A program made the position numbers and the translations under genes. A stretch of DNA of 32,000 nt from Parasynechococcus marenigrum WH 8102 (lineage in GTDB: Bacteria; Cyanobacteriota; Cyanobacteriia; PCC-6307; Cyanobiaceae): positions 1,110,001-1,142,000 of the forward strand of contig NC_005070.1 of NCBI RefSeq assembly GCF_000195975.1, in the 5' to 3' direction. The notes beneath the pieces were generated by a model. The model did not search any database. It saw only the letters and a list, made by a program, of their open reading frames with translations, and was not told the DNA's origin. This document shows positions 17,218 through 31,652 of the stretch, in pieces; position 1 is the stretch's first letter, and every line of letters starts with the position of its first letter.

Positions 17218-17280
<63 letters not shown>

Positions 17281-17899: not shown

Positions 17900-17932
17900 T
17901 CGCTTAGGACAAGCCACAAGCTGTCCTCGCCT

Positions 17933-17951
17933 AACTGGCACAGTGACAGTT
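17933..17951. promoter_or_regulatory. 19-bp near-palindrome AACTGGCAC-A-GTGACAGTT upstream of sRNA copy A
   Basis: One mismatch from the perfect palindrome found at 21734. It overlaps the expected -35 region, and TATGAT at 17960 is a -10 candidate. Confidence 0.4.
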
Positions 17952-17971
17952 GGAACGCTTATGATCCGAAA

Positions 17972-18056
17972 GTGAGGAAAAAATCTCACGGGTTGGAAAC
18001 AAGGACACAACCCCGTGCGGTTTCGGGACCCCTGCCTTTGGCGGGGGTTTCTTTTT
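17972..18056 (+). ncRNA. Yfr2-family-like sRNA, copy A
   Basis: 5' GUGAGGA, then the hairpin CACGGGUU/AACCCCGUG with GGAAACA in its loop, then an intrinsic terminator (CCCCTGCC-TTT-GGCGGGGG plus a T-run). About 85 nt. Confidence 0.55.
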
Positions 18057-18196
18057 GTGTAGGGACGCCGTCGCCTGCCATCGCACACCTATTGTCAGCT
18101 TGTAGCAACAGCTACAAAACGTTCACCCCTCTTTCGGGGGGCGCAGACACTCCAAGCCACGGAACGGGGACTTGGAATTATCTGAGGAACTATCCG

Positions 18197-18364
18197 ATGA
18201 CTGCTCTTCTTTACAGAGGCCGTCCTTACACGACTCCACAAGCCTCACCCAAATCTTGCGTTGAGCTGACCTATCGCCGCGGTCACTACAACACCTGCCG
18301 CGAAGAAGTGGCTCGCAACGTTCATCAGAGCTTGACTTATAGAGGCGCCACCTACAACAAGTAA
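18197..18364 (+). CDS. DUF4278-domain small protein
   Basis: 55 aa with three (L/T)YR(G/R)..Y motifs (LLYRGRPY, LTYRRGHY, LTYRGATY). GAGGA lies 8 nt upstream of the ATG. Confidence 0.65.
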   Translation: MTALLYRGRPYTTPQASPKSCVELTYRRGHYNTCREEVARNVHQSLTYRGATYNK

Positions 18365-18386
18365 TCAAGGCACCGTAAGGACATGG

Positions 18387-18413
18387 CCCCTGCTACGGCG
18401 GGGGTTTCTTTTT
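18387..18413 (+). terminator. intrinsic terminator, a duplicate of the sRNA terminator
   Basis: CCCCTGC-loop-GCGGGGG followed by TTTCTTTTT. Near-identical to 18029-18056 and 21829-21856. Confidence 0.6.
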
Positions 18414-18504
18414 GACATCCGTTGCCCACAGGGTTAGTGAATCAAAATTTTGCCTGGGGCTCGCAAAAGCCGCTCATGGCACCATCCCTAGTGCTCTAGG
18501 GCAC

Positions 18505-18534
18505 AAAAAAACCCGGTGTGACTTGCACAACGGG
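18505..18534 (-). terminator. minus-strand intrinsic terminator inside repeat copy A
   Basis: The minus strand reads CCCGTTGTG-loop-CACACCGGG followed by T7. The only difference between copies falls in the loop. Confidence 0.5.
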
Positions 18535-18737
18535 CTGGGTGATGGGGGAAATCTAAATATGGCTTAGCCGCCAAGTACTGACCAGTCCCACATATGGTGT
18601 CACCCATTACTGGTCAGAACTTCGATACACAATTAAGGAGTTCCACGGGGCACAAATGATGTGGCACAAATGAGTCCAATGCGGCTAGTTTTGTCGGGTC
18701 CGGCCGGGTGATGGGGATCAGCCGAAAGGATTGAAGG

Positions 18738-21577: not shown

Positions 21578-21733
21578 CCGTGAAACCAGCCAAAGCCCCT
21601 CTGGCACCTTGAAAATCTTCTTCCCAGTTATTGAGACTGGAGACACTTGGAGACAAACCTCTCCGAGGCAAGAAAATTGCTTGCCTATGAAGCAAGCGCG
21701 CTCTTCGGGACAGGCGGCAAAGCGTCTACTCGA

Positions 21734-21752
21734 AACTGGCACAGTGCCAGTT
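21734..21752. promoter_or_regulatory. 19-bp perfect palindrome AACTGGCAC-A-GTGCCAGTT upstream of sRNA copy B
   Basis: The 9-bp arms are exact. It occupies the same position relative to the sRNA as 17933-17951. Confidence 0.45.
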
Positions 21753-21772
21753 GGTAGAAGTAGGTTATGGAA

Positions 21773-21856
21773 GTGAGGAAAAATCTAACGGGTTGGAAAC
21801 AAGGACACAACCCCGTGAGGTTTCGGAGCCCCTGCCTTTGGCGGGGGTTTCTTTTT
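21773..21856 (+). ncRNA. Yfr2-family-like sRNA, copy B
   Basis: It has the same GUGAGGA 5' end, GGAAACA loop hairpin and terminator as copy A, with few substitutions. Confidence 0.55.
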
Positions 21857-22226
21857 GAACTCAGTTATCCACAAGGTCAGTGGATCCAAACCTTGCCTGG
21901 GGCTCGCAAAAGCCGCTCATGGCACCATCCCTAGTGCTTTAGGGCACAAAAAAACCCGGTGTGACTCGCACAACGGGCTGGGTGATGGGGGAAACCTAAA
22001 TATGGCTTAGCCGCCAAGTACTGACCAGCCCCACATATGGTGCCACCTATTACTGGTCAGAGCTTCAATACACAATTAAGGAGTTCCACAGGGCACAAAT
22101 GATGTGGCACAAATGAGTCCAATGCGGCTAGTTTTGTCGGGTCCGGCCGGGTGATGGGGATCAGCCGAAAGGATTGATGACCTCGGGGATCACTCCGGGG
22201 TTTCTTTTTGGCCGCCTCAGTCGCCG
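21857..22226. repeat. structured noncoding repeat, copy B
   Basis: Collinear with 18414-18783. It contains the equivalent minus-strand (21948-21977) and plus-strand (22181-22209) terminators. Confidence 0.8.
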
Positions 22227-24160: not shown

Positions 24161-24577
24161 TTAAACATCGACTGCCTTTCCGTCTTCGATGGCTTGAAGC
24201 GTCCTGCGAATCTCTTGCAGCTGCTTCCGTTGCTCAGCTTCCAAGACGTTCTCGCGTAGAATCTTGAAGCTTTCGCTGATGGCCTGGGTTCTGGCGTAAG
24301 CCTTGACCTTGGGATCCAGCGCAATCTTGATCAACTCGTCAGCCAGCCTTGGCGCGGCTGAAGTCAGAAGGTTGTTGGCGACGTTGATGTTCTCGCGTAC
24401 CAGCGATTCGATGAACTCTTCAGCCCTGCTGTCTCGATACCACTTGCGAAGACATGGTGCTTTGACCCCAACAGCAGCTGCCGCATCTGCCCAAGTCGAG
24501 CCATTGGCGCAGAGCGTCAGCCCCTTGATGATGTGCGGCGGGATTGAGTCGTAGCGGTTGATTTCGGTATAACTCAT
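24161..24577 (-). CDS. HTH protein with terminase-small-subunit-like layout (tentative)
   Basis: 138 aa. N-terminal HTH-like GSTWADAAAAVGVKAPCLRKW, then a helical or coiled C-terminus. ATGA overlap with the upstream gene. Confidence 0.55.
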   Translation of the reverse strand: MSYTEINRYDSIPPHIIKGLTLCANGSTWADAAAAVGVKAPCLRKWYRDSRAEEFIESLVRENINVANNLLTSAAPRLADELIKIALDPKVKAYARTQAISESFKILRENVLEAEQRKQLQEIRRTLQAIEDGKAVDV

Positions 24578-25144: not shown

Positions 25145-25720
25145 ATGAAGTCCAATCGCCACGGTCAGAGTCGTGTGCTGGACACGAACCAGCTCGACCT
25201 GCTCATCTCAAATCTTTCTGATCAATACCACCAGCTGGTGGCTGAAGTGTGTCGCCGCACTGGCTGCCGCGTTGGTGAAGCAACGCAACTGACCTGGGGC
25301 ATGGTTTCGGAATCTGCCATCACGTTCCAGCGCGGTATTACCAAAGGCAAGCTGGCCTCAAGGTCTGTGCCGGTTACGCCAGTGTTGTGGGAAGCCCTGC
25401 GCGCCTGGAGAGATGTCTGGGTAGTGCGGCAGGGTCGTGATCCTGTGGCTGGTGATTACCTCGTACCAGGACAATTTGCTGGTTCGTGTCTCAGTACGCG
25501 AAGCTTTATGGATGCTCTTGAAAAGGCGGCTGCTGAATCGGGCCTAGAAGGCGTCTCAAGCCACAGTTTCCGGCGTTCGGCACTAACTAGTGCTCACAGT
25601 GCTGGAGTGCCTCTGAGGGTGCTTATGGCCCTGTCTGGGCATAAATCCATGTCAGCCCTGCAGCGTTACTTAGAGGTGACGCCGGCTCAACGTGTTGCTG
25701 CCGCTGCTGCCTTTGCATAG
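25145..25720 (+). CDS. small tyrosine recombinase, catalytic domain only
   Basis: 191 aa with the full R-K-HxxR-H-Y set (TGCRVGEA, TKGK, HSFRRS, GHKS, LQRY) and no N-terminal core-binding domain. Confidence 0.8.
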   Translation: MKSNRHGQSRVLDTNQLDLLISNLSDQYHQLVAEVCRRTGCRVGEATQLTWGMVSESAITFQRGITKGKLASRSVPVTPVLWEALRAWRDVWVVRQGRDPVAGDYLVPGQFAGSCLSTRSFMDALEKAAAESGLEGVSSHSFRRSALTSAHSAGVPLRVLMALSGHKSMSALQRYLEVTPAQRVAAAAAFA

Positions 25721-25989: not shown

Positions 25990-26220
25990 TCAGTGCAATG
26001 GGCAGAGCTTGCCGATGGGTTTGCCGGTGTCACCGGCTGGCCTTTTGCCATCGACATGGATGACGATCCAGGGCTCGTAAGTAGCGACACCATCAGGTGG
26101 TTCAGGAACTTGCTCGCCTTCGAAGACGCCAGTGACAAGCCATAGCGGCGGCTGCGTTTTCGCCAAGTGTATGTCCTGCGCTTTGCGCAACAGTCGAGCC
26201 AGCTCGCGTGAGTTGTCCAT
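25990..26220 (-). CDS. hypothetical protein
   Basis: 76 aa. A GGGGG stretch lies 9-13 nt upstream of the ATG. Confidence 0.4.
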   Translation of the reverse strand: MDNSRELARLLRKAQDIHLAKTQPPLWLVTGVFEGEQVPEPPDGVATYEPWIVIHVDGKRPAGDTGKPIGKLCPLH

Positions 26221-26513
26221 TCGTTAACCCCCGTTGAGAGCAATTACTAACGGTCTACCGTTTTCCATTGACGCTCGCTTGCAGAGGCGCATCATTCAGC
26301 CATGACAGGCTTGGTTTGCGGCATCACTGCTCTTTGGATGCACTGGTGGTGGTGCTGCAGAACGACGAACTCCCCTGCGCTCAAGAGAAGCTGGCCGTAT
26401 CCGCGCCAGTGGAAAGCTGCGGCTGATTTGTATGAAAGGCCCTGCCGGCGGCATCGCCACCTCAAAGCACGAACCAGGCTGAGTTATCGCAGCCTGCGCA
26501 CTCCATCAGCGGC

Positions 26514-26804
26514 CTAAGTATTTCTCTCAGCTCGTTGGCGAAGCTTGTTCAGTTGATTGTTGAGGCGGAACTTCAGTTGACGAAGGTTTTCGAGGTTGGC
26601 GCGGTATTCGCCGGCGCTCCAGTGCTGTGGATGCGCAACTCGTATTTCCAGCTCTCGTAAGCGTGAGCGATCAGATTGCATTGCGCGCATCAAGAGGGAA
26701 TACCAGCGTGTCGTCGACTGATCAGCGGTGGCATGGTTATTTTTCCCTATGGAGATACGCGGCTTCGACAACGTGAATTTCTTGAGGTTGCCACCCTCTG
26801 CCAC
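26514..26804 (-). CDS. hypothetical coiled-coil protein (start uncertain)
   Basis: The GTG start lies inside the left iteron array. An alternative ATG at 26690 gives 58 aa. Confidence 0.3.
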   Translation of the reverse strand: MAEGGNLKKFTLSKPRISIGKNNHATADQSTTRWYSLLMRAMQSDRSRLRELEIRVAHPQHWSAGEYRANLENLRQLKFRLNNQLNKLRQRAERNT

Positions 26805-26839
26805 CTACTTGTCACCACTTTGCCACCTCAAATGCCACC
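26789..26839 (-). repeat. left iteron array: five TG(C/T)CACC repeats with spacings of 10, 11, 11 and 12 bp
   Basis: Repeat starts at 26789, 26799, 26810, 26821 and 26833. The inner 21 nt are the exact reverse complement of 27026-27046. Confidence 0.8.
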
Positions 26840-27025
26840 CATATATCCCAGTCGTATCAATCGATTTGCGGGATAGCTGATCCGAATTTGGGGGGCCCCC
26901 AGTGTGTTGCACAAACCGGCGGCTTAATACTCAACAGTGATCGCACCAGCCTTGAAATATATGTGGGGGGGTATCAATTCTGTATCTCTACTGCTTCTAA
27001 TCCGTCTCTACCACTGTGATTTGGG

Positions 27026-27077
27026 GGTGGCATTTGAGGTGGCAAACCGGTGGCAAACGGGTGGCAAGTGGGTGGCA
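27026..27077 (+). repeat. right iteron array: five GGTGGCA repeats with spacings of 12, 11, 11 and 11 bp
   Basis: Repeat starts at 27026, 27038, 27049, 27060 and 27071. The array ends 3 nt before the stop of the 769-aa gene. Confidence 0.8.
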
Positions 27078-27080
27078 CGT

Positions 27081-29390
27081 CTAACGAACCACCCGGATTG
27101 ACAAGCCGCCATCAAACACTTGGACTAAGCCACGGCTTTGCAGCATCAGCGCCATTTGCTTTAGTACGGCAAGTGTTGGTCGATCCTTACTGCTCCAGCT
27201 TTTGCGGATTGAACTAAGTGCAACACCTCGACCTGGCGCTTTGCCTTGCTTCTTACGAGCTTTCTCCAGCAGCTTGTCGGCGAGCTCAAGCATCGGATTC
27301 CTGGCACGTTCGTGAAGCTCAACTGCCCTGGTTTTGCCGGCCATCACCAAGTTGGCGGCCAGCTGGAGCGAACGCTCGGAAACAACCGTGGCGGGTTGCA
27401 CCATGCCACGCTCCACCAGTTCTTCTTGACCGGTGGCAATACGGATGAAATGGATTGCCGCCGCTACTCGCAGCACCTGCCCAGGTCCCTTCGCCCACAG
27501 TGCTTCAACCTCTTCACTGCAAGCCTGCAGCGATAAATTCTCAAGCTGGTTGAACAAGCTGGTGAAGAGTTGCTCTGCAACTGCTGACAGCACGTAGGCA
27601 TGGTTCCCGTCTTGGAGGGCAGCCAAATAGAGATTGCCAAGAACAGCTGAAAGTTTCTCGGTGTTTACGTCACCGTCCACCAGCTGACGACGTGAACGAG
27701 GTAGGTGAACAAACAACGGCCTGGAGTTGAAGCCATTGGCGTTACCCGCCTCTAGTTGATCCAAAAATACCTTGGGTTGGATGCCGCCGATCACCCCCAA
27801 CTTCCCCGCACGAACCTCGCGGGATTTCTTGGCATCGGCAAAGACGTCGTTGCTGTAGGCACCGTCGTAGCTCGACAGCCAGAACTCAACATCACCCACA
27901 CCAGCACCACCCTCATCAGCCATCTGCTTAAGCCAGCCGTTTAACTCATCACGCACCAGCAGCCCTGGTACGTCTTCGCCATGGATCGCAAAATCTGCAC
28001 GGATCCCTTGGGTCGATGGCGCGGTGTAGATCAAATTGCGTTTTCGAAAAGCCGGTAGGTCTTCACCATCAGCAGCAGCGGTTTTGCGTCGTTGCTGCTC
28101 ACGTTCGTTCCAGCCATCAATGAACGCGATGGGCTTTGCCATTGGGCCGTTAATCAGCCATTGAAGCAACACAGATTTGGCCGTGCCACTGCTGCCGATG
28201 TGGAACACCCACACCGTGGGGATTTCCTCCATCGACCGACCACGGATGCGAACCTGAGGCGGCAACATCGCGGCGACGCCGGCCATCAACGTCATCACGA
28301 TGGCCTCATCACTGAACTTCAAGCCATCCCGCAGAACGCGGAACATCGGTAGCCAGTCGGCTGGAACGTAATCCGCCAAATGGATTTGGGGTGGCTCGCC
28401 ACGAAGCAGCAGGTCATCAAGTGCATCAGCAATATCCTGTTGACGCTCCAGCGACTCTCGATATTGCTCCGCAAACTTTGCAAGACCAAAGCCGTTTGAT
28501 CTAGTCCCGTATTGATTGACTAGCAACTGCACTTCATCTGCACTTGCACCCTGTTGTATTGCCTCTTTAATCTTGGTGTGTGCATCGTTTTCGTGCTGTT
28601 CGAGCGTCTCTATTGCTGACTTCCCCTTTGGCGTCGTTAGGCCATGACGTGCTAATTCCACTCTGGCCAGGTATTCATCAACTAGCTCATCAATATTACG
28701 GCGATTAAACGGCTTGATAATGTTTGCCCACTCTTCTGCAGAGCAGTTAATAGGTTTTTCCCACTGATCCTTTGGAAGCAGGAATAAATTAGCATTTTCG
28801 TGCTTTCCTCCCTTTCTAAGCTTTTTAGCAGTCCTTAAATTACGAACAAGTCCATGGCAAATACCTGGTTCACCGTCTGGATAGATGTGATGCTGTAGCT
28901 CCTCGCTCAGCAAAGTAAGCTCATAAAAGCGTGACCGCCACGTATTTGCCTCTACAAATTCGAATTGCATCAAAAGATCAATGGCTAGTGTGGCGAGGTC
29001 TCCACCACGTCGAAGAGAAAAACGATCATATTGCTGCCAACCTTGCTTAAGTAGATCAATGCAGTCACTTATCCATTGATCAACATCAATAGATAAATTC
29101 CTGGCATTGTCGCACTTAGCCTGGATTTTGTCGAGCGCAGACTGTGATGCCCACCACCGTTTATCTAAGACATCCCACAGCCAACAGGCCATTGGATGAA
29201 GTGGTGTGTAGTTTGGCTCTGGTTCACGATCGTCGTGGCCAAGCCATACGTCAAACAGATCACTTGCATAGTCCCAATGCTTAACGTTCCAGCCATAAGT
29301 CTCTTTGAGCTTCTTAAGCCGTTCAATCTCGGCATAGATAGGAGAATCGTCCTCAGGTGCTGAAGACTGCTGGACTGGTGCGTGCGCCAC
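27081..29390 (-). CDS. DUF3987-type P-loop NTPase (helicase-like replication protein) with an unassigned ~350-aa N-terminal region
   Basis: 769 aa. Walker A-like GSSGTAKS, Walker B-like LLVRDELNGW, plus GGIQP and NGFNSRPLFV motifs in the order recalled for DUF3987. Confidence 0.8.
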   Translation of the reverse strand: MAHAPVQQSSAPEDDSPIYAEIERLKKLKETYGWNVKHWDYASDLFDVWLGHDDREPEPNYTPLHPMACWLWDVLDKRWWASQSALDKIQAKCDNARNLSIDVDQWISDCIDLLKQGWQQYDRFSLRRGGDLATLAIDLLMQFEFVEANTWRSRFYELTLLSEELQHHIYPDGEPGICHGLVRNLRTAKKLRKGGKHENANLFLLPKDQWEKPINCSAEEWANIIKPFNRRNIDELVDEYLARVELARHGLTTPKGKSAIETLEQHENDAHTKIKEAIQQGASADEVQLLVNQYGTRSNGFGLAKFAEQYRESLERQQDIADALDDLLLRGEPPQIHLADYVPADWLPMFRVLRDGLKFSDEAIVMTLMAGVAAMLPPQVRIRGRSMEEIPTVWVFHIGSSGTAKSVLLQWLINGPMAKPIAFIDGWNEREQQRRKTAAADGEDLPAFRKRNLIYTAPSTQGIRADFAIHGEDVPGLLVRDELNGWLKQMADEGGAGVGDVEFWLSSYDGAYSNDVFADAKKSREVRAGKLGVIGGIQPKVFLDQLEAGNANGFNSRPLFVHLPRSRRQLVDGDVNTEKLSAVLGNLYLAALQDGNHAYVLSAVAEQLFTSLFNQLENLSLQACSEEVEALWAKGPGQVLRVAAAIHFIRIATGQEELVERGMVQPATVVSERSLQLAANLVMAGKTRAVELHERARNPMLELADKLLEKARKKQGKAPGRGVALSSIRKSWSSKDRPTLAVLKQMALMLQSRGLVQVFDGGLSIRVVR

Positions 29391-29825: not shown

Positions 29826-30038
29826 TCACTTCACCGGCTTGATGCTGCTGGATCGAAACTGCCCTGCCAGCCTCCACTTCGTGAGAGTCTCGCTTGTGAC
29901 GCCTAGCCTTCTCGCAAGCTCACGCGGCGGCAACCACGCACTTGCTGTGGTTGGCGAACGATCCAGCAGCAGATTGATGTCATGACGCATTTGCCGCACT
30001 TCTGCGGTCAACGACGCCAACAATGAGGTTTCAGACAT
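29826..30038 (-). CDS. excisionase/AlpA-like HTH protein
   Basis: The HTH sequence LPPRELARRLGVTSETLTKWRLAG, located immediately downstream of the integrase gene on the same strand. The ORF also has a GTG at 30047. Confidence 0.6.
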   Translation of the reverse strand: MSETSLLASLTAEVRQMRHDINLLLDRSPTTASAWLPPRELARRLGVTSETLTKWRLAGQFRSSSIKPVK

Positions 30039-30191
30039 GAGGAACACCCAAGAGGAACTAGTCGTTAGTTCGCAAAGGCGCTGACGCCCGGGGCCTTGGA
30101 TGAACCTCTCACTGCCATAAGACGGCTTGCAAATTCAGTTTAACCCGTTTCTACTGTTCGCGCATGGGTGCTCCTCAGGCTTGTTAGTGGT

Positions 30192-31334
30192 TTAGAGATT
30201 TTCAGCAGCTCTCAGGATGTCTCTCTTCTGCATCGCAGCTGCATAGGTCCGCATGTGGATGCTGATGTCGTGCCCTGCTGCTTTGGCTGCCACTCCATCA
30301 CCAAGCTGGCTTTTCAGGATGGAGCGGATGCACCACGAATGTCTCAGGTTGCTGTTTTCGAGTTTCACCGTTCCACACCATCGGCTCTGAAGCCACTTGT
30401 TCATGCGATCGACGTGCCCTTTTGTTTTGTTGCTGTCGTAGGCGACAGGGTCAAGAAACTCATTTGGCCTCTCAACTGTGCAGATTTCGAGGGGTTCAAT
30501 CCACTCTTTCGGCAACGCCAGGGCTTCTCGTTGCTCTGGTGGTGCGTTTTTTTGCTTGATACCCAGGACTGATGCAGTCGCACCAGTTTCTGATGGCACC
30601 AAGCTGAACACCTCTGACACCCGACATCCGTAGACCAGCAGGGCTGCGAAGCACCAGCCATAAATGCTGGAATGACGGTTGTTCAACGCAAACTCAAACA
30701 GCTCTTCGTCTAACGGAAGCTTCGGCACCCTGGTTAGATACTTCGTATGGACCTTGTCGAGTTCTTTAGTTGGCAGCTCGGCAAACTTTGCCAATGCCTT
30801 GGCTTTCTGGCAGAACTCGTGGCGCGCCTTGCTCGCTGCTGGTAGTGACTTGGCAACCGCAACAAGTGCCTCAATCGTCAGCAGATCAGACGTGTCAGGA
30901 TTTTTCTTGAACGATGCCTCGATTCGATCCCACGTTCGCTTCGCTTGAGACTTCTGGGCCGTAGTGCTGACGTCCCGCTTTTCGTACCAGTCGGCTTTGA
31001 ACCTCGCTGTCCATGCACCAATGGTCTGGCTTTCAGATGGCTCCTCTGGCGCTTGGGTCGTTTCGCCCGATTGAAGCCAGCCGTCCCAGCTGAAGGTGCC
31101 GAGCTTTCTGTCAGTCGAAAGCTTGATCGCCAAAGTCTTGGCGCGATTCAGCCCTGCCTTGGTCGCATCACAACCGGTTGGGACGTCGTATTGAACCTCG
31201 TGGTTGCTCCCATCTTTGTGCGGCAAGACGGCTCTGAGGCAAAGCTTGTTGCGCCGTTGCCGGATTGAGACGCCAGCTTTTTCGGCCTTAAGACCTTGGT
31301 TGACGGCTTTGACGAGATCGCCAACTTCAGACAA
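30192..31334 (-). CDS. int: tyrosine integrase
   Basis: 380 aa. Catalytic Arg in YGCRVSEV, then LRHSWCIRS and AGHDISIHMRTY. It lies next to the tRNA target. Confidence 0.9.
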   Translation of the reverse strand: MSEVGDLVKAVNQGLKAEKAGVSIRQRRNKLCLRAVLPHKDGSNHEVQYDVPTGCDATKAGLNRAKTLAIKLSTDRKLGTFSWDGWLQSGETTQAPEEPSESQTIGAWTARFKADWYEKRDVSTTAQKSQAKRTWDRIEASFKKNPDTSDLLTIEALVAVAKSLPAASKARHEFCQKAKALAKFAELPTKELDKVHTKYLTRVPKLPLDEELFEFALNNRHSSIYGWCFAALLVYGCRVSEVFSLVPSETGATASVLGIKQKNAPPEQREALALPKEWIEPLEICTVERPNEFLDPVAYDSNKTKGHVDRMNKWLQSRWCGTVKLENSNLRHSWCIRSILKSQLGDGVAAKAAGHDISIHMRTYAAAMQKRDILRAAENL

Positions 31335-31503: not shown

Positions 31504-31566
31504 AACGGAGAGGGTGGGATTCGAACCCACGGTGCCCGTGAAGACACGCTGGTTTTCAAGACCAGA
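31504..31566 (-). repeat. attR: repeat copy inside the intact tRNA-Ser
   Basis: 62/63 identical to 17218-17280. Confidence 0.9.
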
Positions 31567-31592
31567 GCCATAAACCACTCGACCACCTCTCC
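31506..31592 (-). tRNA. tRNA-Ser (anticodon UGA), 87 nt, CCA not encoded
   Basis: Acceptor GGAGAGG/CCTCTCC, anticodon arm CTGGT-CTTGAAA-ACCAG, long variable arm, T arm GTGGG-TTCGAAT-CCCAC, discriminator G. Confidence 0.9.
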
Positions 31593-31652
31593 AGGGTGTC
31601 AGCGCCTGAGCGATCAGACGCTGTTCAACTTTAAGTCAGCCGGATGCGACGA

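Follow-up and report, generated by a model that had tools for sequence, protein, structure and literature searches.

A 289-bp region in the genome of Parasynechococcus marenigrum WH 8102 probably constitutes the vegetative replication origin, of the iteron type, of a 14.3-kb tycheposon-like element, a reading to which we assign a probability of about 0.75. The region lies in a stretch of 32,000 nucleotides (nt) that was analysed as a whole and is called the window here (NC_005070.1, positions 1,110,001 to 1,142,000 of the forward strand; all coordinates below are counted from its first letter). It consists of two inverted arrays of short repeats and the spacer that they enclose, and it follows directly on the stop codon of a gene for a 769-amino-acid (aa) protein with a DUF3987 domain, presumed to be an initiator-helicase. 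An inspection of the DNA letters, referred to below as the original prediction, had proposed an iteron-type origin served by this adjacent protein, with a large repressor-binding locus as the alternative. The origin proposal is supported by comparative evidence and by structural evidence from a predicted model, namely the conservation of the layout among relatives, the predicted fold of the protein, homologues on plasmids and the likeness of the module to the replication modules of Staphylococcus aureus pathogenicity islands (SaPIs).

The proximal (right) array, at 27026–27077 on the forward strand, comprises five copies of GGTGGCA that start at 27026, 27038, 27049, 27060 and 27071, corresponding to spacings of 12, 11, 11 and 11 bp; on the gene-sense strand it reads as five copies of TGCCACC. 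The distal (left) array, at 26789–26839, is inverted relative to the proximal one, with four copies of GGTGGCA on the reverse strand (26789, 26799, 26821 and 26833; TGCCACC on the forward strand) and one variant, TGTCACC, at 26810, spaced by 10, 11, 11 and 12 bp. The inner 21 nt of the two arrays (26819–26839 and 27026–27046) are exact reverse complements, and the inverted arms reach 58 nt at 81% complementarity in a repeat search; the enclosed spacer (26840–27025) measures 186 bp. The last base of the right array is 27077 and the helicase stop codon spans 27081–27083, so that only 3 nt lie between them. Exact searches and coordinates agree in these respects with the original prediction, which had described the five repeats and the spacings of each array, their mirror orientation, the complementary inner 21 nt, the 186 enclosed bp and the 3 nt to the stop of the DUF3987 gene. 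The palindrome GGGGGCCCCC at 26891–26900 and the run of seven G at 26965–26971 are also present as it had claimed, while its placing of an ATATAT tract beside each array held for the left array, which is abutted by such a tract (26841–26846), but not for the right, from which the tract (26957–26962) is 63 nt away.

In the 32-kb window GGTGGCA occurs 21 times, compared with 6.9 ± 2.6 expected occurrences, and a count of 21 was reached in none of 100 shuffles. A motif-blind scan of the same 32 kb, in which any 6-mer qualified that was present in at least four copies at a spacing of 10–13 bp, returned the two arrays alone, and in first-order Markov simulations an array arose in 1 of 300 sequences (mean 0.003). 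Chance is thereby excluded as the origin of the arrays. Two further single copies of GGTGGCA in the vicinity (26727 and 27432) are no more than chance predicts.

The sequence downstream of each helicase gene was then compared among homologous loci (numbered with the prefix L) from metagenomes, one metagenome-assembled genome (MAG) and further contigs, using the same motif-blind array detector. The layout seen in the window recurs in most of the loci with sufficient DNA downstream, namely in L001–L011, L015–L018, L021, L029 and L039, with helicases 40–85% identical. The proximal array of these relatives holds about four to five repeats, starts 3–7 nt past the stop codon and is spaced by 11–12 bp; past a spacer of ~180 bp comes the distal array, which is inverted and lies at about +234 to +290, and the detector found arrays almost nowhere else within the homologous loci. 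The core of the repeat, CCAC(C), is constant, and its 5′ flank varies by clade, reading TGCCACC in the window and L002, GGCCACC in L001, TTACCACC in L004 and TGTCCACC in many loci, with ATCCAC(C) and GTCCAC as further variants. L042, whose helicase is 29% identical, has AACTCCGACATGTC repeats from 4 nt past the stop codon. The clade of L012 and L020 carries GCTCCAG/CTGGAGC repeats instead of the xCCACC type, which may represent a switch in specificity. In L012–L014 and L020, the stretch 100–480 nt past the stop codon contains a terminator-like hairpin followed by these more loosely spaced repeats, and a C-run motif of the spacer, described below, is kept.

A scan of genome contigs recovered one locus, L001, and a scan of viral contigs a single weak partial match. 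L001 (CALRWB020000012.1) belongs to the MAG, which is labelled Chitinophaga pinensis; it contains a 62%-identical copy of the module, with a tRNA-Ala(GGC) at a distance of about 1 kb, and its organism label or binning looks doubtful.

The 769-aa protein (27081–29390, reverse strand) matches Pfam DUF3987 (PF13148; E value 2e-26, aa 430–682; 93.5 bits, where the gathering cutoff is 27) and no other Pfam family; neither its first 340 aa nor its last 80 aa matched Pfam even at a relaxed threshold. An AlphaFold2 (AF2) model, built on 47 homologues, reached a predicted local distance difference test score (pLDDT) of 82.6. In this model residues 1–330 are all-helical, without a primase-like fold, and are followed by a P-loop AAA+ core (residues about 380–690) in which Walker A (G402/K405/S406) and Walker B (D481/E482) are invariant among homologues. 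Searching the model against the Protein Data Bank (PDB) with Foldseek returned MCM subunits (E values down to 6e-7), the Cch protein of the staphylococcal cassette chromosome mec (SCCmec; 5dgk), archaeal ORC2 and ComM, and the ATPase core accordingly models as MCM-like; a sequence profile of the 47 homologues matched no PDB chain at E ≤ 0.1. Published work places DUF3987 in helicase superfamily 6 (SF6), distantly related to MCM and with a winged helix-turn-helix at the C terminus (PMC4889955), and one of its members, the PriCT-DUF3987 protein AgaPH, has been shown by experiment to be a helicase (PMC11724360). The annotated length of the WH 8102 protein differs between GenBank (CAE07660.1, 703 aa) and RefSeq (WP_148228779.1, 769 aa); the GTG start at 29390 is favoured because homologues align across the additional 66 N-terminal residues.

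The C terminus of the protein is of particular relevance to the arrays. Residues 699–767 are predicted to adopt the helix–strand order H-S-H-H-S-S of a winged helix, and a model of the isolated C-terminal 80 aa (pLDDT 84) returned only winged-helix domains in Foldseek, including those of Mcm4, Mcm5 and Mcm7 (TM scores 0.5–0.62, E values at least 0.014); model and search both bear out the winged-helix-like C terminus suggested by the original prediction. The corresponding coding region (aa 699–769; 27084–27296, reverse strand) presumably specifies the iteron reader. Its variable loop, aa 731–737, reads SWSSKDR in the 769-aa protein and differs among homologues in step with the repeat class (SWSSKD/G, GWSSRD, GWSSHT, GWPHRS and CWEHSS). 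Furthermore, divergence is in every case greater in the winged helix than in the ATPase core (for instance, 80 versus 89% and 59 versus 74% identity). This co-variation of repeat and loop and the faster divergence of the winged helix are what a cognate pair of reader and site predicts.

Distant homologues of the helicase (22–30% identity) were found by tblastn solely on plasmids, of cyanobacteria and in one case of Parabacteroides, with no homologue in phage genomes. On the 7.6-kb plasmid pOSC7112.05 the DUF3987 gene is the sole evident replication gene, the nine other genes all being annotated as hypothetical, and four copies of TGTGCCA, found nowhere else on the plasmid, lie directly past it. 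Similarly, the DUF3987 homologue is the sole evident replication protein of the 7.0-kb plasmid p1 of Microcystis aeruginosa NIES-2549 (L035), and its reading frame is directly followed by some 16 (A)AGGTGAC repeats, which form two groups inverted relative to each other. In the stretch 1–658 of p1, the frame continues for ~430 nt beyond the annotated coding sequence (658–2613), crossing a segment that resembles a winged helix before it enters the repeats, pointing to a frameshift or an annotation error. In Nostoc pCENA543c, a repeat cluster lies 280–445 nt downstream of the helicase homologue. The order of gene and then repeats is thus also found on 7-kb plasmids, replicons for which an origin is indispensable.

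The spacer between the arrays (26840–27025), presumed to be the melting or initiation zone, contains several conserved blocks. Its GC content is 0.48, compared with 0.53 for the element and ~0.62 for the host, and it is locally AT-richer at about 26830–26870 and 26950–26990. A C-run followed by (T)ACATAYAT (26955–26975, reverse strand; CCCCCCCACATATAT in the gene-sense reading) includes a −10-like TAnnnT and recurs at +99 to +113 past the stop codon in the window, L002, L003, L005, L006, L007, L011 and L015. A second block, CACACTGGGGG(N)CCCCCAAAT, sits at 26886–26906, ~+180 past the helicase stop (alignment columns about 203–225), and includes the G6C5 palindrome; one or two CTGGAGC motifs are also among the conserved spacer blocks, and a conserved AAAAATTC block lies directly beyond the distal array. 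In the alignment of relatives the C-runs favour the gene-sense strand, and the strand-biased spacer motifs (C-run with ACATAYAT; CACACTGGGGGnCCCCCAAAT) keep constant distances from the arrays. Candidate roles for these blocks are an unwinding or priming site, a promoter for the small open reading frames (ORFs) downstream, and sites for a second protein; on the broader, speculative reading given below, the C-run/ACATAYAT motifs could act as a novel type of signal for priming or for R-loop formation.

The closest architectural parallel is provided by the Rep-ori modules of SaPIs and other phage-inducible chromosomal islands (PICIs), such as SaPIbov1, SaPI1 and SaPI5, which likewise reside on integrative elements with an integrase. 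SaPI Reps, structures of which have been determined, are self-loading helicases of superfamily 3 (SF3) or of the MCM-like SF6 type, whose C-terminal winged-helix domain reads iterons of 5–6 nt; the SaPI origin has 6–12 such iterons directly past rep, split evenly and in opposite orientations between the two flanks of an AT-rich centre, and one hexamer per side has been proposed (PMC9371898, which summarizes Ubeda et al. 2007 and 2012). The module in WH 8102 shares with this system an AAA+ helicase as presumed initiator, a C-terminal winged helix (here predicted), iterons right past the gene, two oppositely pointing sets of them around a central region, and a specificity domain (here presumed) that co-varies with the iterons between elements (here seen in sequence). 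It differs in showing no sequence similarity to SaPI Reps that the profile of 47 homologues could detect among PDB chains, in having heptamers in strict 11-bp phasing as 5 + 5 sites, in its 186-bp centre of GC 0.48 with conserved C-run motifs, in having no primase gene and in residing in a cyanobacterium. Because the resemblance lies in fold and architecture alone, we regard the DUF3987 module as an analogue of the SaPI module, not as a member of the same family by sequence.

More distant parallels exist. The alpha protein of satellite phage P4 is a primase joined to an SF3 helicase with a C-terminal winged-helix origin-binding domain, and the type I iterons of P4, TGTTCACC-like, form two clusters about 4.5 kb apart, ori and crr. 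P4 is thus similar as an integrative satellite with a winged-helix replication protein and short repeats in two clusters, but the clusters are about 4.5 kb apart rather than 186 bp, and the sequences are unrelated. Classical iteron plasmids (pPS10, RK2, F and R6K) combine helically spaced repeats with a winged-helix initiator and an adjoining unwinding region; their small Rep recruits the host DnaA and DnaB, and their iterons are direct, in one orientation, whereas in WH 8102 the predicted initiator is the helicase itself and the arrays are inverted. The ORF904 protein of the archaeal plasmid pRN1 combines a primase-polymerase and an SF3 helicase. A sequence downstream of the pRN1 replication gene is reported to be essential for replication (PMC4234260), which parallels the present case in combining a multifunctional replication protein with a needed sequence downstream of its gene. 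A literature search for iterons together with Synechococcus, helicase and integrase returned the pRN1 paper alone. The CyRepA plasmid initiators of Synechocystis were considered as relatives and discarded, as they combine DUF3854 with DEXDc and form an unrelated family.

Two other DUF3987-like or MCM-like systems deserve comparison. Cch of SCCmec is an MCM-like AAA+ helicase of a mobile element, matched by Foldseek (E value 1.5e-3) in fold only, and its Pfam family, DUF927, differs from DUF3987 (PMC5862659). AgaPH, from an integrative element of Bacteroidota, resembles the 769-aa protein in its DUF3987 domain, its small C-terminal domain and the bounding of its element by an integrase and a tRNA; it differs in its N-terminal PriCT domain, its partner primase-polymerase and its 5′–3′ polarity, and the paper describes no origin and does not mention iterons (PMC11724360). 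A fused or adjacent primase is frequent in the DUF3987 family without defining it, and no such association was seen for the WH 8102 protein in its model or in profile scans of the neighbouring ORFs.

Given the SaPI-like layout, we propose that the winged helices of the 769-aa protein read the arrays, so that this protein would be initiator and replicative helicase in one. The heptamer TGCCACC would be recognized by the C-terminal winged-helix domain, and the five sites per array, which at ~11 bp apart would lie along much the same side of the double helix, would nucleate one helicase ring per side. Since the arrays point in opposite directions, the two rings would be placed in mirror orientation around the 186-bp spacer; the strands would part within the spacer, and the primase and polymerase of the host would then take over. 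What we infer in this scheme is the binding of the repeats by the winged helix, the loading of hexamers at the arrays, the place of melting and replication of the excised element as such. On a broader scale, the DUF3987 module might be a general origin-initiator cassette of a widespread family of picocyanobacterial tRNA-integrating elements and of small cyanobacterial plasmids, in which an MCM-like helicase loads itself at phased sites for its winged helix, forming two rings that face each other, and initiates without an element-encoded primase. Variation in the repeats and in the winged-helix loop would then mark incompatibility or specificity groups, and the cassette could become the first replicon native to marine Synechococcus and Prochlorococcus that is available for vectors; this generalization is speculative, and we consider it rather more doubtful than probable.

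Several observations weigh against the origin reading or parts of it. The correlation between loop and iteron is confounded by descent, because each repeat class is essentially one clade. Arrays are lacking after the helicase gene in L019 and L026, the plasmid homologues L037 and L038 have no repeats directly downstream, and no circular (episomal) contigs were found among the related loci. The spacer is only mildly AT-richer than the element and contains conserved G/C runs and no plain AT-rich unwinding element; this mild AT-richness, the length of 186 bp and the G/C runs set it apart from the centre of SaPI origins. No primase was detected in the element by Pfam and phage-profile (phrog) scans of neighbouring ORFs or in the helicase model. 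In addition, helicase polarity differs between the systems compared, being 5′–3′ for AgaPH (PMC11724360) and 3′–5′ for MCM and SaPI Reps (PMC9371898).

The arrays are part of an island bounded by repeats of a tRNA gene. GC content falls from ~0.62 to ~0.52 between 15.1 and 31.5 kb of the window. A tRNA-Ser(TGA) gene (31505–31593, reverse strand), the integration target, provides with its 3′ 63 nt (31504–31566) one attachment (att) repeat, and a partial tRNA copy at 17218–17280 provides the other, a direct repeat of 63 nt with one mismatch; these repeats delimit the 14.3-kb element that contains the arrays. Low-GC DNA extends for 2 kb more (15.1–17.2 kb) outside the att repeat, which suggests older island remnants. 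Next to the tRNA, and facing inward, lies the gene for a 380-aa presumed site-specific integrase (30192–31334, reverse strand), followed by a gene for a 73-aa helix-turn-helix (HTH) protein (29826–30047, reverse strand), a weak candidate for an excisionase or regulator (phrog_66, E value 0.004; HTH_Tnp_1, E value 0.005), and then by the 769-aa DUF3987 protein and the arrays; the helicase and integrase genes are 0.8 kb apart. The 380-aa protein is presumed to be an integrase on the strength of its homologues, which bear the source name ‘putative phage integrase’ and the newer Pfam accessions PF27132/PF27551; the protein itself had no match to the Pfam version searched, its Phage_integrase model included, or to the PDB, and none to the small recombinase by BLASTP. 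The att repeats, the tRNA target and the integrase together lead to the expectation of an excised circle.

Tycheposons are defined by a tRNA target (tRNA-Ser TGA being among those listed), an inward-facing integrase, a partial tRNA repeat and a small replication module, possibly with terS, which PICI-like members carry (Hackl et al., bioRxiv 10.1101/2020.12.28.424599). Further marks of the group are an integrase from a lineage of tyrosine recombinases specific to tycheposons and a shared set of hallmark gene profiles, and tycheposon genes are induced by mitomycin C according to the same source. The island in WH 8102 has tRNA-Ser(TGA), an inward-facing integrase homologue, the 63-nt repeat and a helicase gene near the integrase. 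A gene for a 138-aa HTH protein (24161–24577, reverse strand; HTH_23) has a weak match to a small terminase (phrog_7344, E value 0.003); if this match is real, the element would be a PICI-like, phage-satellite type of tycheposon.

On the far side of the arrays lie a 76-aa ORF (25990–26220, reverse strand), homologues of which are found past the arrays in L002, L005, L029 and L032, and a gene for a 191-aa Xer-like tyrosine recombinase (25145–25720, forward strand; Pfam Phage_integrase 3e-21, NCBIfam XerC/XerA-like) that comprises the catalytic domain only. The interval between the arrays and the 76-aa gene is ~470 bp longer in the window than in L002. A recombinase of ~190 aa is syntenic in L001, L005, L006, L007, L012, L015, L029 and L039, convergent with the helicase and 0.5–1.4 kb past the distal array, and a similar gene is present on Microcystis p1 (L035, 4678–5226). 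Judged from this sequence conservation the 191-aa recombinase is not a remnant, and it may resolve multimers of the replicative form. A 96-aa ORF (26514–26804, reverse strand) that starts inside the left array was rejected as a gene; its protein is not conserved in the closest relative, L002, and the stretch shared with L002 (AAAAATTCnnnTTnTCGAAGCCG) looks like a DNA motif. Elsewhere in the element there is an internal duplication (17907–18696 versus 21708–22139) with segments of 76, 79 and 300 nt at 71–95% identity, about 3.4–3.8 kb apart.

Among other explanations for the arrays, an operator or regulatory locus, which would govern transcription of the operon of small ORFs that follows, or copy number through handcuffing, and would not mark a start site, is unlikely yet the strongest competitor to the origin reading. 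The −10-like TAnnnT after the conserved C-run points towards the downstream genes, the AAAAATTC block lies just beyond the distal array, a conserved small ORF follows the arrays, and plasmid iterons often serve initiation and control alike; a regulatory role may coexist with origin function, the binder being the helicase winged helix or another small DNA-binding protein. A sigma-70 promoter and terminator scan of the region found neither, a result that is uninformative for cyanobacterial promoter types. Pure regulation also fits poorly with the place of the arrays, which adjoin the stop codon of the helicase gene on plasmids too, where the genes that follow are different, and ten-site operators across 290 bp are unusual. 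A structured non-coding RNA, with the repeats as incidental features, might account for the conserved blocks of the spacer, but the spacer has no stable RNA fold on either strand (folding z-scores −0.15 and +1.42) and an Rfam scan of 26300–27400 gave no significant family (best E value 0.67, outside the region); we reject this reading, which has the lowest probability of all those considered.

Function as a packaging site of the pac or cos type for a small terminase, or as a partition centromere, is very improbable. The 138-aa HTH protein with its weak small-terminase match is encoded 2.2 kb away, and terS is known from PICI-like tycheposons; the gene that the arrays follow is, however, that of the helicase rather than the terS-like one, and arrays are also present on pOSC7112.05, where no gene is identified as a terminase. 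The centromere parC of plasmid R1 consists of two sets of five direct 11-bp repeats that flank the promoter of a parMR-type operon, and two sets of five repeats at 11 bp are formally alike. The repeats in WH 8102 are inverted where those of parC are direct, the promoter scan gave no match, and no gene for ParA, ParM or ParR was found among the element ORFs scanned; for packaging and partition alike, it is also difficult that the repeat class tracks the C terminus of the helicase. A res- or dif-like recombination or accessory site for the Xer-like recombinase encoded 1.1 kb away ranks marginally lower still. The synteny of the 191-aa recombinase near the arrays in many loci, and the similar gene on Microcystis p1, would suit such a site, but ten 7-bp sites at helical spacing are unlike the 11-6-11 core sites of Xer recombinases, pOSC7112.05 has its repeats past the helicase gene and no annotated integrase, and the recombinase has no evident repeat-reading domain, because its integrase-profile match covers the catalytic domain only.

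Taken together, the interpretation of the 289-bp region as a replication origin bears on islands of the tycheposon type, which are regarded as drivers of gene exchange in those marine phototrophs that are most abundant. The replication modules of these islands are known merely as gene lists: the preprint that described them treats gene modules only, does not mention iterons, has a single instance of ‘origin of replication’, which refers to the chromosome, and maps no origin (Hackl et al., bioRxiv 10.1101/2020.12.28.424599). The principle of a helicase-initiator with an adjoining iteron origin is already known and would not surprise a specialist; the present case would tie it to a DUF3987 helicase in a tycheposon-like island of a marine cyanobacterium. 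If the reading is correct, the principle known from SaPIs, that of a helicase acting as its own initiator on iterons just past its gene, extends to the DUF3987 branch of MCM-like helicases and to another phylum, and the repeat sequence would sort elements into specificity groups. A defined 289-bp origin and its cognate helicase would then form a testable replicon, and the excised island would be predicted to amplify. Such a replicon could be a starting point for autonomously replicating vectors in marine picocyanobacteria, for which tools of this kind are scarce, and the value of the finding lies in a defined, testable origin for these elements and in what might be a native replicon for picocyanobacterial genetics.

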